Below, piece after piece: positions 57,308 to 62,703 of a DNA stretch of 64,000 nt (positions are counted from its first letter, which is position 1; each line of letters opens with the position of its first letter). Source of the DNA: a virus (lineage: Duplodnaviria > Caudoviricetes); the IMG/VR virus record IMGVR_UViG_3300029288_000120, positions 1 through 64,000 of that record; one strand, given 5' to 3'. The translations under genes were made by a program, and so were the position numbers. The notes under the pieces are model-generated. The model was not told the origin of the DNA and searched no databases. It saw only the letters and a program-made list of their open reading frames with translations.

Positions 57308-57333
57308 AATTTACCAAAATTTTTGTACCCCCC

Positions 57334-57362
57334 TTGGTAATTTTGTTTTGGTGGTATATAAT
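57334..57362 (+). promoter_or_regulatory. Sigma70-type promoter
   Basis: TTGGTA-17 bp-TATAAT; TTACCAA/TTGGTAA inverted repeat overlaps the -35. Confidence 0.6.
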
Positions 57363-57422
57363 AGGTATGTGAAGAGGGCGTAATGCCCAAGTTTATTAAC
57401 ACTTTTTACTTTTAGGAGAACT

Positions 57423-58127
57423 GTGATGAAAGTTGTGCGAAAAGATCTTGTGTCGTTGTGTGTGGCCCTGGGATACAAGGCTGCTGCAAAATGGAACAAA
57501 GCCAGGATGGAGCGTAAATTGCAGGAGATCGCTGAGTTGGGAAAGGATGCAGATCTCAAGGTGGAGGAAGGAACCGAAGATGAGGAGAAGCTAAACAAGT
57601 TGTTGGAATCTCTCATCAAGGCCAAGGGGGCGGTGGACATCATTGTGGAAGATGATGATGAGGAAGAAGCTGAAGAAGAGGATAAGGCTCCTGTAAAGGA
57701 AGCTGAAGAAGAAGAAGAAGAAGAAGAGGAAGCTGAAGAAGCTGAGGATGAAGCCCCTGCAAAGGAAAAGAAGGCCAAGAAGGGGAAGAAGGCAAAGAAA
57801 GAAGCTGAGGAGGAAGCTGAGGATGAAGCTGAGGAGGAAGCTGGGGAAGAAGAGGATAAGGTTCCTGTAAAGGCCAAGAAAGAAAAGAAGGTCAAGAAGG
57901 AGAAGAAAGCAAAGAGGGAGGGGCCTTCCAACAAGGAGCAGGTGTACAAGATGTACTTAAAAATCGAGGATCGAAAAGAGCAGTCCCCCAAGAAGTTGGC
58001 CGTTGAGTTCAACAAAGTGGTAACAGGTGTGCAGTTGAATACAATTGCCATTTGGGTGTCGATGTGGAATAAGGGAAAAGGACTCCCTGCTTGTGCTAAG
58101 AACAAGGCCAAGAAGGAAGAAGACTGA
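57423..58127 (+). CDS. Low-complexity Glu/Lys-block protein
   Basis: Alternating poly-E and KKAKK blocks between two folded-looking ends; AGGAG RBS. Confidence 0.7.
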   Translation: MMKVVRKDLVSLCVALGYKAAAKWNKARMERKLQEIAELGKDADLKVEEGTEDEEKLNKLLESLIKAKGAVDIIVEDDDEEEAEEEDKAPVKEAEEEEEEEEEAEEAEDEAPAKEKKAKKGKKAKKEAEEEAEDEAEEEAGEEEDKVPVKAKKEKKVKKEKKAKREGPSNKEQVYKMYLKIEDRKEQSPKKLAVEFNKVVTGVQLNTIAIWVSMWNKGKGLPACAKNKAKKEED

Positions 58128-58170: not shown

Positions 58171-58566
58171 ATGAGAGTCACAAAACGGGTTGAGTTTGAT
58201 TCTGCACACAGACTTTATGGATACTCTGGTCCTTGTGCAAGACTTCATGGGCATAGGTATGTTCTTGAAGTCACTCTAACAGGACAAGATTTGGATGACC
58301 TGGGAATGCTAGTGGATTTCAAGGAAGTATCACAGCAAGCCAATGGATGGGTGCAAGAAAAGTGGGATCACAGAACAATCCTTGCTTATAAGGATCCTCT
58401 GCGTGAAGTTGTAGAGGATTGTTACGTGATGCACCTGGGAAGAAATCCAACAGCAGAAAATATGTTGCTGGAGTTTAGTGATGCTTGGAAACCCATAAAG
58501 GGAACCAAGCTTCACAGTCTTAGGCTCTATGAAACCCCTGACTGTTGGGCAGATTTGATCCTGTGA
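58171..58566 (+). CDS. queD: 6-carboxy-5,6,7,8-tetrahydropterin synthase
   Basis: FDSAHRL..Y.G.C.RLHGHRY, GML.DF, WDH, NPTAEN, ETP. Confidence 0.93.
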   Translation: MRVTKRVEFDSAHRLYGYSGPCARLHGHRYVLEVTLTGQDLDDLGMLVDFKEVSQQANGWVQEKWDHRTILAYKDPLREVVEDCYVMHLGRNPTAENMLLEFSDAWKPIKGTKLHSLRLYETPDCWADLIL

Positions 58567-59210
58567 ACACACAAATACCTGAAAAAATCGACTACGATCC
58601 AGAAGGAAGTTTGGACGTAGTCGATATCTTTTATTCCATTCAAGGAGAAGGCCCCCTTGTAGGAACACCAGCAGTATTTATTAGGCTTGCTGGTTGCAAT
58701 TTTTGGTGTAGATTCTGTGATACTGACTACACCACTGGTAGACATAGAATGTCTGTAGAAGATATAGTTGGGGTGGTGAAGAATTTCCCAACTTGTTCTC
58801 TAGTAGTATTAACTGGAGGGGAGCCTTTTAGGCAAAACGTAGCCCCATTGATTTCCAAGTTAGGATGTATGGTCCAAGTGGAAACCAATGGTACCCTAGA
58901 TCCACAGGGAATAGATAAAGACCAGTTTTCTTGGCTAAATATAATTTGCAGTCCCAAAACAGGCAATGAATCCATTTCCGATGTCATAAGAAAAAATGCT
59001 TCTGCTATCAAGTATGTAATAGATGTGATGAGGATAGATGGGCAAGATGGATTGCCAAGGGGATTGGCAAGGTTTACGGGTATTCCTGTGTTTGTACAAC
59101 CTATGGATAATGAAGACTATAATAGGAATGTACAGGCAGCAGTTGATAGCTGTTTGAAGTTTGGGTACCGTTTATCACTTCAAATGCACAAGATAGTAGG
59201 AATAAAATGA
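58545..59210 (+). CDS. queE: 7-carboxy-7-deazaguanine synthase (radical SAM)
   Basis: FYSIQGEG...G.PAVFIRLAGCN..C.FCDT, TGGEP, VETNG, SPK, LSLQMHK. Confidence 0.93.
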   Translation: MGRFDPVNTQIPEKIDYDPEGSLDVVDIFYSIQGEGPLVGTPAVFIRLAGCNFWCRFCDTDYTTGRHRMSVEDIVGVVKNFPTCSLVVLTGGEPFRQNVAPLISKLGCMVQVETNGTLDPQGIDKDQFSWLNIICSPKTGNESISDVIRKNASAIKYVIDVMRIDGQDGLPRGLARFTGIPVFVQPMDNEDYNRNVQAAVDSCLKFGYRLSLQMHKIVGIK

Positions 59211-60112
59211 AAACAGTTGATTTAACATGGTGTGCGTTAAGATCACGTGCAGAAGCTGTAGTAAAGGACATCTTACTCCGTCCCTTCCATGACCATGATA
59301 GACTATATGCCTACCCGGTTCCTCGGGGGGGTGTTTATGCTGGTCTAATCTTGCAGGAGGTTGGAAAAGTTGTTGGGTTGGATATTGAGTTGGTAGACGA
59401 TCCAGCAGTAGCTCATATTTACATAGATGATATCATTGACTCAGGCGAAACTAGAGAAAGATACCAGAAAAAATCATGCAAACGATTTTATGCTTTAATA
59501 GATAAGACAGCAGATCTTGAAAGTATTTGGTATACATTTCCTTGGGAGAGACTAAGTGGGGAGAATGGTCCACAGGAGAACGTCAGACGGTTGCTGGAGT
59601 ATATAGGGGATGATCCCAATAGGGAAGGTCTGAAAGATACTCCAGATAGAGTGATAAGATCTTTTGAAGAACTTTACTCAGGGTACAAGACACAGCCAAG
59701 TAACATTTTGACTGTATTCAAAGATGGCACTTGTAATGAGATGGTTGTTCTGAAAGATATAGAGTTTTACAGTACTTGCGAGCACCACATGCTTCCATTT
59801 TTTGGTAAAGCTCACATTGCCTATATTCCCAACGGTAAGGTTGTTGGCATATCGAAGTTGGCAAGATTGTTAGAAGTATTCAGTAGGAGATTGCAAATAC
59901 AAGAGAGAATCTGTCAGCAAGTAACAGCTTCTCTTGATAAGAATTTGCAACCTATGGGATCTGCTTGTATTCTACAAGCACAACATTTCTGCATGACTAG
60001 TCGGGGAGTGCAGAAGCAGAACTCTATTATGGTGACAAGTTCACTGACTGGGGCATTTCTGGAATCTGATAGGGTTAGGCAGGAATTACTTAGTTTGGTT
60101 GGAAAAGGATAG
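59207..60112 (+). CDS. folE: Phosphoribosyltransferase-like domain fused to GTP cyclohydrolase I
   Basis: N-terminal VPRGG, IDDIIDSGET, FPWE; C-terminal REGL.DTP.R, CEHHMLPF, GISKLAR, RLQIQER, HFCMTSRG. Confidence 0.92.
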   Translation: MKTVDLTWCALRSRAEAVVKDILLRPFHDHDRLYAYPVPRGGVYAGLILQEVGKVVGLDIELVDDPAVAHIYIDDIIDSGETRERYQKKSCKRFYALIDKTADLESIWYTFPWERLSGENGPQENVRRLLEYIGDDPNREGLKDTPDRVIRSFEELYSGYKTQPSNILTVFKDGTCNEMVVLKDIEFYSTCEHHMLPFFGKAHIAYIPNGKVVGISKLARLLEVFSRRLQIQERICQQVTASLDKNLQPMGSACILQAQHFCMTSRGVQKQNSIMVTSSLTGAFLESDRVRQELLSLVGKG

Positions 60113-60121
60113 GAAGCTTGT

Positions 60122-61087
60122 ATGGATGTAGATCTTTCCCCTTTTAGTGATATCCTGGAAGAAAAAAAGCTGTACAGTCCCGGACCAGTTCCACAAAGAA
60201 TGGTCATAGATGTAAGTTATAGTCATAGAAGTATAGAGTTTAAGAATCTCTACAGGGAGATTTTGCGACTTTTACGAGAGAAGTATCAAGTACCATCAGA
60301 GTATGGTGTAGTTCTCATACAAGGTAGTGCTACCAGTGCTATTGAGTCTGTTCTGTACAGTCTTTCACATATCAAGTTTAGATTTCTCTGTACGGGGGTA
60401 TTTGGGCAGAGAGCCGAGAAAATCTATACTAGGATAAGTGAGAGACAGAATACCAAGAAAGTGGGAAATGGACTCTACTATGTACAGTTTGAGACCAGTA
60501 AAAGTAAATACTCTTCTTTAGCATACAATCTGGATGATTATGATTTGGTTGTTGCCGATTGTGTTAGTGGATTTGGTTACTACCCTCTTCCTAAGGTTAA
60601 TGTAGCTATCACATCTTCTGCAAAGATATTGGGTGGCTTGCCAGCCTTGGGAATAGTTATATATGATGAGAAAGCACTTAGTTACTTTAAGGGTGGTATT
60701 GACTACTTGGACATTTTGAAGTATATAGAATTGGGTGTAGATTTTCAGACCCCACATACCCCCATGCTTCCACAGATGATGAGTCTGCAGAAACAACTGG
60801 AAGATCCCATAAGCAGAAAGCAAATTGAGACAAACAGCAACAGTTTAGTATCAAGTAAGATAGTATTTTGTGGGGAAACCAAATCTCCAGTTTTAACAGT
60901 ATGTAGTCCTGGATATTCCAGTGTAAAAGATACTTTTCGGGAACATAATATAGAGGTGTATCATAATTCTGCTTATATGGAAGATCAGTTTCAGGTAAGT
61001 ATGTACAACTACAGGGATGAGAGATACTACTCTCTTCTTCGAATTCTCTTGGAAGGGATTATTGATGAAAATCGTCTGTCAGCTTAG
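60122..61087 (+). CDS. PLP-dependent class V aminotransferase-like protein
   Basis: SPGPV, SHRS.EF, GSAT.A.E, G.FG.R, ETS, DCVSG, SSAK.LGG.P, TPHTP. Confidence 0.85.
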   Translation: MDVDLSPFSDILEEKKLYSPGPVPQRMVIDVSYSHRSIEFKNLYREILRLLREKYQVPSEYGVVLIQGSATSAIESVLYSLSHIKFRFLCTGVFGQRAEKIYTRISERQNTKKVGNGLYYVQFETSKSKYSSLAYNLDDYDLVVADCVSGFGYYPLPKVNVAITSSAKILGGLPALGIVIYDEKALSYFKGGIDYLDILKYIELGVDFQTPHTPMLPQMMSLQKQLEDPISRKQIETNSNSLVSSKIVFCGETKSPVLTVCSPGYSSVKDTFREHNIEVYHNSAYMEDQFQVSMYNYRDERYYSLLRILLEGIIDENRLSA

Positions 61088-61715
61088 TGGTGGAGCAGAT
61101 AGTGCTTTGGCTCTGATAAAGACCAGAGAGAGATGGCCCGATGCTGAAGTACACACTTTATTTATAGACTACAATCAGGTTTGTAGGGAACAAGAATATA
61201 GAGCAGCTCTTTCTATCTCTAAGAAGTTGGGGATAGAGGAATTGCATTGTTTACGTCTACCCAATCTCTGGAAATCTGGGGGAATGATAGAGGGGGAGTA
61301 CGCTTCAGAAGCTAATGTTTATACTCCGTTGCGGAACTTGGTGTTATTGGGGATGTCCCTTGCGTATGCTGAGAGCATTGGAGCGGATACTGTGGTTACT
61401 GGAAGCAAGGGTCACAGTAAGGTAGAGGCAGATCCACATAGTTACTACGACAGTACATTAGCATTCCATACCCTTATGGAAATGGTTTGGTTTTACACCA
61501 CGGAAAAGAAAAGAAATGTGCAGATTGTGCCCATTCTATCACAAGGACATAAAAACACCTTATTGAAGGAGGAAGTGTACTCGCAGTTGATACAAAACGG
61601 CATAAAATATGAGGACACTTGGAGTTGCTTTAGAGGGGGTGAGTATGAGTGTGGGGAATGTACAAACTGTATAGTGAAAAGAAGATGCTATGAAACAAAA
61701 AACAATGCTGGATAG
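61065..61715 (+). CDS. queC: 7-cyano-7-deazaguanine synthase
   Basis: LSGGADS, DYNQ, PLRNL, TWSCF, CGECTNC. Confidence 0.9.
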   Translation: MKIVCQLSGGADSALALIKTRERWPDAEVHTLFIDYNQVCREQEYRAALSISKKLGIEELHCLRLPNLWKSGGMIEGEYASEANVYTPLRNLVLLGMSLAYAESIGADTVVTGSKGHSKVEADPHSYYDSTLAFHTLMEMVWFYTTEKKRNVQIVPILSQGHKNTLLKEEVYSQLIQNGIKYEDTWSCFRGGEYECGECTNCIVKRRCYETKNNAG

Positions 61716-62703
61716 TGGGGCGTACTCTGTTTACAGATTGGGAATAGAAATTGATCTGGATGAGTATATAGAGTACTGTGCAACCTGTCCACAAGTATCC
61801 TATTTTGTTAATCTAGATGTGATTCCAGGGGTATATGGGAATCCAGCTAGCATAAACGGCACAGAAATAGAAAGATGTAGTCAGGCTTCTTGGAACAACT
61901 ATAGGAAGATGATAAAAACACTACCTATAGAAAAAGTCATACCAGTTTTTCACCAAGGGGATGAAGTAGAATGGTTGAAAAGGTATATCAAGTTTGGAAC
62001 CCCTTATATTGGTCTATCCCCAGATAAGAATCTCTCAATAGCGAAGAGAATGAAGTGGATGAGGGGTTTGCAAGGCATCATCTCAGACAATGGAAAGCCC
62101 ATAGTAAAGACCCACATATTTGGAACAACATTTCCATCCTTCTTGTTTGCGTTTGAGTGTTACTCAGTAGATTCAACACTCTGGTTGAGACATGCTGCTT
62201 ATGGAAAGCTTCTGGTTCCTAGATCGAAGGGAGGAAAGTATGATTACTCCTTATCCCCTTTTAGCTTGGCTGTATCAAAGCAGTCCCCTGATATAAAGAG
62301 GAAAGGGGCTAGTATAGATAATGTGAGGGGAAAAGAAAGAAAGTACTTCTTGGATTATATAGAATCGTTGGGAGTACCGCTGGGGGAGAGTGATATAGTC
62401 AAGGTGAAAAGCCTTGACTATGAGTTAAAAGACAATGAAGAGTGGCTAAATAAGAAGAAATTGCAGATTCTTCGCAAAAAGGTTTTGGGGCTAACAAACT
62501 ACTACGTCAGCAGACACTTGGCAAATGTGCGTTATACCAATGCACTACAGAAAAATAGTTGGGTTCGTCGTATTTATTTTGCAGGAGCTAGTTCTACCAA
62601 AGAAGAAGTGTTAAGAGAGATAAAAAGCTACTTTTACGCTTTTTCAGAGTACAAACAAAAAGGAAATGGTAATGGAAGTAGGAAGAAAAGATCTTCTGGA
62701 TAA
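61690..62703 (+). CDS. dpdA: DpdA/TGT-like DNA deazaguanine transglycosylase
   Basis: LDSGAY, NLDVI, IPVFHQG, HIFG, SVDST; adjacent to que genes. Confidence 0.75.
   Translation: MKQKTMLDSGAYSVYRLGIEIDLDEYIEYCATCPQVSYFVNLDVIPGVYGNPASINGTEIERCSQASWNNYRKMIKTLPIEKVIPVFHQGDEVEWLKRYIKFGTPYIGLSPDKNLSIAKRMKWMRGLQGIISDNGKPIVKTHIFGTTFPSFLFAFECYSVDSTLWLRHAAYGKLLVPRSKGGKYDYSLSPFSLAVSKQSPDIKRKGASIDNVRGKERKYFLDYIESLGVPLGESDIVKVKSLDYELKDNEEWLNKKKLQILRKKVLGLTNYYVSRHLANVRYTNALQKNSWVRRIYFAGASSTKEEVLREIKSYFYAFSEYKQKGNGNGSRKKRSSG

Follow-up and report, generated by a model that had tools for sequence, protein, structure and literature searches.

What does a pyridoxal phosphate (PLP)-dependent transaminase do in a phage gene cluster for 7-deazaguanine DNA modification? 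The question is raised by IMGVR_UViG_3300029288_000120, the 93,208-bp record of an uncultured phage with a CheckV completeness of 100%, of which the first 64 kb were analyzed as one stretch (the window). At positions 58171–62703, six plus-strand open reading frames (ORFs) encode QueD, QueE, a phosphoribosyltransferase (PRTase)-FolE fusion, the transaminase (AT), QueC and DpdA (Table 1). A preliminary description of this DNA had called these six genes in this order, and all of the ORFs were recovered at the coordinates and on the strand that it gave. Phage DNA is known to contain eight derivatives of 7-deazaguanine, each of which has been traced to a specific tailoring enzyme. Our proposal, which we hold at somewhat less than even probability, is that AT makes a small phospho-amine (for example, serinol phosphate) and that the QueC-like protein is a ligase that amidates 7-carboxy-7-deazaguanine (CDG) with this phospho-amine. 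With similarly guarded expectation, the base in the phage DNA may be an undescribed N-substituted 7-carboxamido-7-deazaguanine, such as CDG amidated with serinol or ethanolamine, which may still be phosphorylated. It is also conceivable, at about the same tentative level, that such an amine-making two-enzyme module is widespread in uncultured phages and that the same AT family feeds ATP-grasp modules in phages that lack deazaguanine genes.

Amine ligation is the best-supported reading of the locus because the AT–QueC pair is conserved, and its genes often overlap, in 18 independent lineages; because the AT-linked QueCs fall into a clade of their own, in which the motifs of the substrate pocket are altered; because the same AT family adjoins ATP-grasp amide ligases, HAD phosphatases and cytidylyltransferases; and because QueC-family enzymes joining amines to CDG have been published (RoyL, QatC and Cap9, discussed below). 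It is further favored by the lack of QueF, GATase or any other known tailoring gene in the genome, by the fusion of a HAD-like domain to AT in three relatives, by an apparently intact PLP enzyme that has Gln for Arg and keeps the SHRS motif, and by the capsule pathway of Campylobacter jejuni, which shows the same logic of transaminase, amide ligase and HAD phosphatase. The preliminary description had suggested that the PLP enzyme makes or alters an amine and that QueC attaches this amine to the CDG carboxyl. On the pairing, the QueC clade, the contexts and the precedents, that suggestion remains the best supported one, and it is one that we infer rather than observe; what the description overlooked is that the QueC is atypical and that AT has lost the carboxylate-binding Arg.

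By its gene content, the cluster belongs to the DpdA-type systems, in which a 7-deazaguanine takes the place of guanine in the DNA. In the proposed route, FolE, QueD and QueE, a gene set for GTP to CDG that is complete in the cluster, would supply CDG, and AT would aminate a small phosphorylated carbonyl compound to a phospho-amine. As a candidate reaction, that of dihydroxyacetone phosphate (DHAP) to serinol phosphate would come first, since it accommodates most simply the residue pattern and all three genomic contexts described below; phosphoglycolaldehyde to phosphoethanolamine and phosphonoacetaldehyde to 2-aminoethylphosphonate are possible alternatives. Adenylation of the CDG carboxyl would fall to the QueC-like PP-loop enzyme, with the phospho-amine replacing ammonia, and the resulting N-substituted 7-carboxamido-7-deazaguanine could not be dehydrated to a nitrile. 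DpdA would then exchange the amide base for guanine in the phage DNA, or else CDG would be inserted first and amidated on the DNA. A phosphatase, which is fused to AT in some relatives and absent from the window genome, may remove the phosphate. If true, the transaminase-plus-QueC module, whose two genes span about 1.6 kb, would extend these modifications by a new kind of chemistry, in which side chains are amide-linked to the base. New 7-deazaguanine bases alter the sensitivity of DNA to restriction enzymes, CRISPR nucleases and DNA glycosylases and are of interest as DNA-labelling tools, and the compact size of the cluster (4.5 kb) makes the amide hypothesis directly testable by expression in Escherichia coli.

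Table 1. The six genes of the cluster, with their positions in the window and the matches on which each assignment is based
Feature	Coordinates	Strand	Length	Evidence
QueD-like 6-carboxytetrahydropterin synthase	58171..58566	+	131 aa	PF01242 2e-29; TIGR03367 2e-24; phrog_2389
QueE-like radical SAM CDG synthase	58545..59210	+	221 aa	PF04055 6.5e-8; phrog_2076 2.3e-46
PRTase-FolE fusion	59207..60112	+	301 aa	PF01227 1.5e-69 and NF006825 1.3e-73, both over residues 123-298
Gln-type class V-fold PLP transaminase (AT)	60122..61087	+	321 aa	AlphaFold2 (AF2)/Foldseek, PDB profile, SerC alignment
Atypical QueC-family PP-loop ATPase	61065..61715 (ORF open from 61017)	+	216 aa from ATG	PF06508 5.7e-27
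DpdA-type DNA-guanine transglycosylase	61690..62703	+	337 aa	phrog_887 2.1e-39

AT itself gave no match in Pfam or PHROG at E<=0.01, and its matches to the NCBIfam SerC and PhnW models (E values of 9e-11 to 1e-5) reached at best 41 bits against a cut-off of 253. Its assignment to the class V fold comes from its relatives and its predicted structure. Half of the 14 homologues used (7/14; 34-50% identity) carried a precomputed PF00266 annotation, and a profile built from all 14, searched against the PDB, recovered class V aminotransferases with an E value of 4e-23 (52 PDB hits). The AF2 model, with a predicted local distance difference test (pLDDT) score of 90.5, was matched by Foldseek to subgroup IV/class V aminotransferases with an E value of 1e-17 and a template modelling (TM) score of 0.8, the matches including 1iug, 2dr1, PntC-AEPT, SerC, PhnW and AGXT. 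A cysteine desulfurase (NifS/IscS) acting with the PP-loop protein as a thiolation pair was considered as well and rejected, since the 15-sequence alignment contained no invariant Cys and the top folds were transaminases. Among 50,697 cultured-phage records, no homologue of AT was found by tblastn and no match to the cluster by megablast.

Residues K168, D146, H35, R36 and Q291 were invariant in the 14 homologues. In the alignment with E. coli SerC, K168 corresponds to the Schiff-base Lys198, D146 to the cofactor residue Asp174 and F94 to Trp102, and the His35-Arg36 pair of the SHRS motif falls on the phosphate-binding His41-Arg42. The segment FQVSMYNY, on the other hand, aligns with GGMRASIYNA of SerC in such a way that the carboxylate-binding Arg335 is replaced by Gln (Q291). 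This Gln was invariant in every collected member of the family, hereafter referred to as Gln-type, whereas two Cytophagales SerC-like outgroup proteins retained the Arg. AT thus has the same fold, Lys, Asp and aromatic stacking residue as SerC, PhnW, PntC-AEPT and AGXT (1bjn, 1m32, 6pd1, 1h0c and 2dr1), and is unlike them in being about 40 residues shorter and in having an invariant Gln for the carboxylate- or phosphonate-binding Arg. Judged by alignment and model, it looks catalytically intact. Because the His-Arg phosphate binders are kept and the carboxylate Arg is replaced by Gln, its substrate appears to contain a phosphate-like group and to lack an alpha-carboxylate.

The distribution of AT was then examined on viral, genome and metagenome contigs, where 68 loci could be grouped into 42 AT lineages (clusters at >=80% identity). 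In 18 of these lineages, the next gene downstream, on the same strand, was QueC, and FolE, QueD, QueE or DpdA was usually near; the QueC-linked lineages ranged down to 25-30% identity to the window AT, and the two genes overlapped or abutted in most cases. Another 11 lineages had an adjoining RimK-like ATP-grasp ligase and/or HAD-type phosphatase, and three had an adjoining IspD/MobA-like cytidylyltransferase. Deazaguanine genes were near, with no adjacent QueC, in four lineages (one of them the Arg-type outgroup), and the remaining six had none of QueC, ATP-grasp/HAD, cytidylyltransferase or deazaguanine neighbors. ATP-grasp ligases, HAD phosphatases, cytidylyltransferases and TagF-like transferases are users of small amines or phospho-alcohols, and cytidylyltransferases act on phosphorylated alcohols or phosphonates. 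In the AT tree, the Gln-type family formed one clade with a support of 99 in the Shimodaira–Hasegawa-like approximate likelihood ratio test (SH-aLRT), within which the QueC-, ATP-grasp- and cytidylyltransferase-linked branches interleave; this interleaving suggests that one and the same AT product feeds different downstream enzymes. In addition, the AT-linked QueCs divide deeply in a way that mirrors a split of the AT tree, a correspondence that suggests a long-standing AT–QueC partnership.

The same survey bears on whether AT might be a mere bystander, that is, an auxiliary metabolic gene (for example, a SerC-like one for serine or one-carbon supply) beside a QueC that makes preQ0 as usual. 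Auxiliary metabolic genes are frequent in phages, and the best, if weak, matches of AT were indeed to SerC and PhnW models. However, adjacency to QueC in 18 lineages of such divergence, often with overlapping genes, and the matching deep subclades of the two proteins are hardly what a bystander would show; moreover, no member retains the Arg that SerC needs to hold the carboxylate of phosphoserine, and the partner QueCs are not canonical. We consider this explanation very improbable, the least probable of those weighed here.

Some of the other neighborhoods deserve description. Two complete viral contigs of ~90 kb (L020, 6980-10442; L023, 6955-10860) encode a glycosyltransferase, a Gln-type transaminase, a RimK-like ATP-grasp protein and a HAD protein, without QueC, at a position comparable to that of the window cluster; they have helicase and SNF2 genes in common with the window phage. 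By analogy, this gene set may represent a different, undescribed modification system resembling the serinol-amide module of C. jejuni. In four contigs from Melainabacteria and other metagenome-assembled genomes (L026, 7860-11497; L027, 7935-12815; L055; L056), AT is followed by a cytidylyltransferase and then by a TagF-like glycerophosphotransferase, a gene order suggestive of the synthesis of a CDP-activated amino-alcohol phosphate destined for a polymer of the cell surface; a methyltransferase also occurs in the cytidylyltransferase group (L011 and L026). Finally, a HAD-like domain (DFDGT ... IDD/IDN) was fused to the AT N-terminus in three relatives (P0012, L046 and L054), two of which lie in deazaguanine clusters. 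After the fusion in L046 (2-1258) come QueC, which overlaps it by 4 nt, a TGT-like gene that scores above the cut-off of PF01702, and PolB; the fusion in L054 (841-2091) follows FolE.

These contexts are also relevant to the idea of a QueF-independent aminomethyl route, in which AT would act on a deazaguanine (for example, converting 7-formyl-7-deazaguanine to preQ1) or after insertion, and the DNA would contain dPreQ1 or a relative. In its favor, the closest relatives of AT include PhnW-type enzymes, whose reaction interconverts aldehydes and primary amines; loss of the Arg that binds the carboxylate agrees with a substrate other than an amino acid; and the genome has no QueF. The preliminary description had noted the absence of queF, arcS and Gat-QueC, and for QueF and GATase this absence extends to the whole 93,208-bp genome, in which the sole match to a QueF model was sub-cut-off and fell within the T-fold of FolE, and a GATase search (GATase_7) gave no match. 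However, the cluster contains no reductase for making the aldehyde, and an aminomethyl route would leave unexplained the remodelling of QueC, the retained SerC-type phosphate binders, the HAD fusions and the presence of the AT family with ATP-grasp/HAD and cytidylyltransferase genes in genomes without deazaguanine genes. Such a route therefore seems to us quite improbable.

The likely start of QueC is the ATG at 61065, which is preceded by a GGAAGGG Shine-Dalgarno sequence inside the 3' end of the AT gene and overlaps that gene by 23 nt; because of this overlap, the two genes are likely to be translationally coupled. The protein scored 95 bits against PF06508 (cut-off 22) and 76 bits against TIGR00364 (cut-off 150), and its PHROG matches were phrog_1550 and phrog_10428, profiles built on Gat-QueC fusions; it has no N-terminal extension itself, and no GATase is fused to it or adjoins it. 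Canonical QueCs are marked by the motifs SGGxDS, YxQxHxxE, VPxRN and YPDC and by a C(x)8CxxCxxC zinc site, of which YxQxHxxE and YPDC map to the mouth of the substrate pocket, and the substitutions Y35A, R99A, Y131A and Y189A abolish function (Libby et al. 2026, PMC13329287). The window QueC retains SGGADS, TPLRN and the zinc cysteines (C-x7-C-x2-C-x2-C, spaced as in phage 9g). In place of YxQxHxxE it reads YNQVCREQE, with the His lost and one residue extra, and in place of YPDC it reads YYDS, with the Pro lost, Cys changed to Ser and a GSK insertion.

The same pattern was seen when 21 distinct AT-linked QueCs were aligned with the QueC of E. coli, two canonical QueCs of phages (Dp-1 and Quesadilla) and three Gat-QueC references. 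All 21 lacked the His of YxQxHxxE and had one extra residue there, lacked the Pro of YPDC and carried a G[SN]K plus 4-5-residue insertion, while retaining SGGxDS, xPxRN and the zinc cysteines; most of them had a further common insertion after the PIL motif. On the tree, they occupied one side of a branch with an SH-aLRT of 97, opposite all six references, and did not group with the Gat-QueCs. By motif and tree, the phage has no ordinary QueC, and the AT-linked QueCs are a distinct subfamily. Prediction of an AT–QueC complex, with each protein given as an alignment, returned a score of 0.00, which speaks neither for nor against binding.

The affinities of this QueC bring up another explanation, namely that AT supplies or relays nitrogen to QueC (for example, as ammonia by PLP-dependent elimination), as GATase does in Gat-QueC, so that the base would be dPreQ0, dADG or dG+. 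The His loss and the one-residue insertion in YxQxHxxE are common to Gat-QueCs and AT-linked QueCs, the window QueC matches the two Gat-QueC-based profiles, and the tight coupling of the AT and QueC genes would suit a two-subunit enzyme. On the other side, the nearest folds and sequences of AT are transaminases (AGXT, SerC and PhnW) rather than lyases or ammonia-forming enzymes, and the AT-linked QueCs stand apart from the Gat-QueCs on the tree. Furthermore, the AT family also serves ATP-grasp ligases and cytidylyltransferases, which have no need of ammonia and whose branches interleave with the QueC-linked ones, and the HAD fusions would have no role in ammonia supply. Taken together, nitrogen delivery appears unlikely, if less so than the other alternatives weighed here.

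How does the cluster compare with systems already described? Phage DpdA systems such as those of 9g, CAjan and Dp-1 consist of FolE, QueD, QueE, QueC and DpdA, with tailoring by Gat-QueC, QueF or DpdL/M/N (PMC6884629, PMC10516641). The window cluster has the same core genes and a homologous DpdA with invariant Asp/Asp/His/Asp residues and, as in 9g, it lies in a replication module beside a sliding clamp; what sets it apart from these systems is a QueC from a different clade, whose pocket motifs are altered and whose gene is coupled to that of a PLP transaminase. No publication describing the AT–QueC pairing was found. The terms PLP, pyridoxal and transaminase do not occur in the two main papers on phage deazaguanines (PMC6884629, PMC10516641), and 'aminotransferase' occurs once in the former (Hutinet 2019), for enzymes making G+ from preQ0. 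None of the four terms occurs in the 2026 survey of the QueC family (PMC13329287), a 2026 preprint on deazapurine genome mining has only class III aminotransferases, in Streptomyces clusters (bioRxiv 10.64898/2026.04.15.718813), and a 2025 paper on carboxymethylcytosine has no relevant PLP or ATP-grasp content.

For the two halves of the proposed chemistry, separate precedents are available. In the formation of roseomycin A/peptidyl-deazapurines, RoyL ligates adenylated CDG with amino acids, lysine among them (bioRxiv 10.64898/2026.04.15.718813), and QatC and Cap9 join CDG to protein N-termini (PMC13329287). These are PP-loop enzymes of the QueC fold, and the published ligation of CDG with an amine is the chemistry predicted here for the phage QueC; unlike the phage cluster, they serve secondary metabolism in Streptomyces or the defence of bacteria, and no transaminase partner has been described for them. 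In the HS:2 capsule pathway of C. jejuni, Cj1437 converts DHAP to (S)-serinol phosphate, the C-domain of Cj1438 is an ATP-dependent amide ligase and Cj1435 is a HAD phosphatase, a combination that is a proven route to serinol and ethanolamine amides of glucuronate (PMC11800397). The AT relatives show the same logic of transaminase, ATP-dependent carboxylate-amine ligase and HAD phosphatase, to which the two ~90-kb viral contigs add a glycosyltransferase. The window cluster is unlike the capsule module in that the carboxylate would belong to a nucleobase (CDG), the ligase would be a PP-loop QueC instead of an ATP-grasp enzyme and the genome has no HAD protein. Cj1437 has no entry among the 52 PDB hits of the AT profile.

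Several points weigh against amine ligation. The identity of the amine is deduced only from residue patterns and gene neighborhoods. Gat-QueCs, which are makers of known bases, also lack the His and have the same one-residue insertion, and therefore the His loss alone is not diagnostic of a nucleophile other than ammonia; RoyL reportedly keeps Tyr/His/Glu where the phage QueC clade has lost the His, so that the phage enzymes are remodelled differently from this published amine-using QueC. The reference set of the QueC tree comprised six sequences only, and long branches meet in it. No protein of 563-2000 aa that includes AT, such as an AT–QueC fusion, was found, which is weak evidence. In addition, no recognizable phosphatase was found in the whole genome with Pfam HAD_2 or by phmmer with the HAD domains of the relatives, so the phosphate would stay on the base or need a host enzyme for its removal. 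Lastly, DpdA would have to accept a bulkier base, or the ligase would have to act on DNA.

DpdA gave no match to the Pfam TGT model at E<=0.01. By tblastn, it matched 174 cultured-phage records with 27-38% identity over residues 4-231 (38% for Edwardsiella phage ZHS, 32% for Dp-1 and 27% for 9g). In the alignment, D8, D43, H142 and D161, the three Asp residues and the base-binding His expected of a DpdA, were invariant, in the same order as Asp95/Asp130/His181/Asp256 of the S. Montevideo DpdA (PMC10164549). The window protein begins at the catalytic motif LDSGAY and lacks the N-terminal segment of about 35-100 aa seen in the other aligned phage DpdAs; at its C-terminus it is extended by about 85 aa containing the motifs IYFAG and SYFYAF, which are reminiscent of the N-termini of other DpdAs (blastp E values of only 0.2-0.4). 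The AF2 model had an overall pLDDT of 59.8, with values <50 from residue 164. It is possible that the TIM barrel of this DpdA is circularly permuted.

Among the genes for CDG synthesis, the QueE ORF had QueE models as all of its top NCBIfam matches, yet these were sub-cut-off. The N-terminal ~115 aa of the FolE ORF (59207-59560) form a compact Gpt-like PRTase domain with RGG, IDDIIDSGET and FPWE motifs, and the same fusion is present in a viral contig, L022 (alignment over residues 4-300). RGG and IDDIIDSGET, typical marks of PRTases binding phosphoribosyl pyrophosphate, bear out the PRTase domain that the preliminary description had recognized on FolE. This domain could recycle the guanine released by DpdA towards GTP, or ribosylate a deazaguanine base.

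The cluster is as tightly packed as first described, its junctions being either overlaps or gaps of <=10 nt. No terminator-like sites were found on the coding strand within it, and promoter matches in it were no more frequent than in shuffled sequence. Nearly all genes of the 93,208-bp record are on the plus strand. The replication module in which the cluster is embedded has a DnaB-like helicase upstream of it and, downstream, genes for the sliding clamp, a UDG-exonuclease, PolA, a clamp loader, a RecA-like protein, FEN and RuvC. Between the helicase and queD (57311-58127), two long ORFs overlap on opposite strands, one of 234 aa on the plus strand (57423-58127), which is 89% conserved in contig L001, and one of 266 aa on the minus strand (57311-58111); their matches were weak and capsid-like only. 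Outside the window, at G000 79324-80688 (L024 16324-17688), the phage encodes a UDP-glucose/GDP-mannose dehydrogenase that is full-length and matches all three Pfam domains of the family, with E values as low as 5e-53; enzymes of this family make sugar carboxylates.

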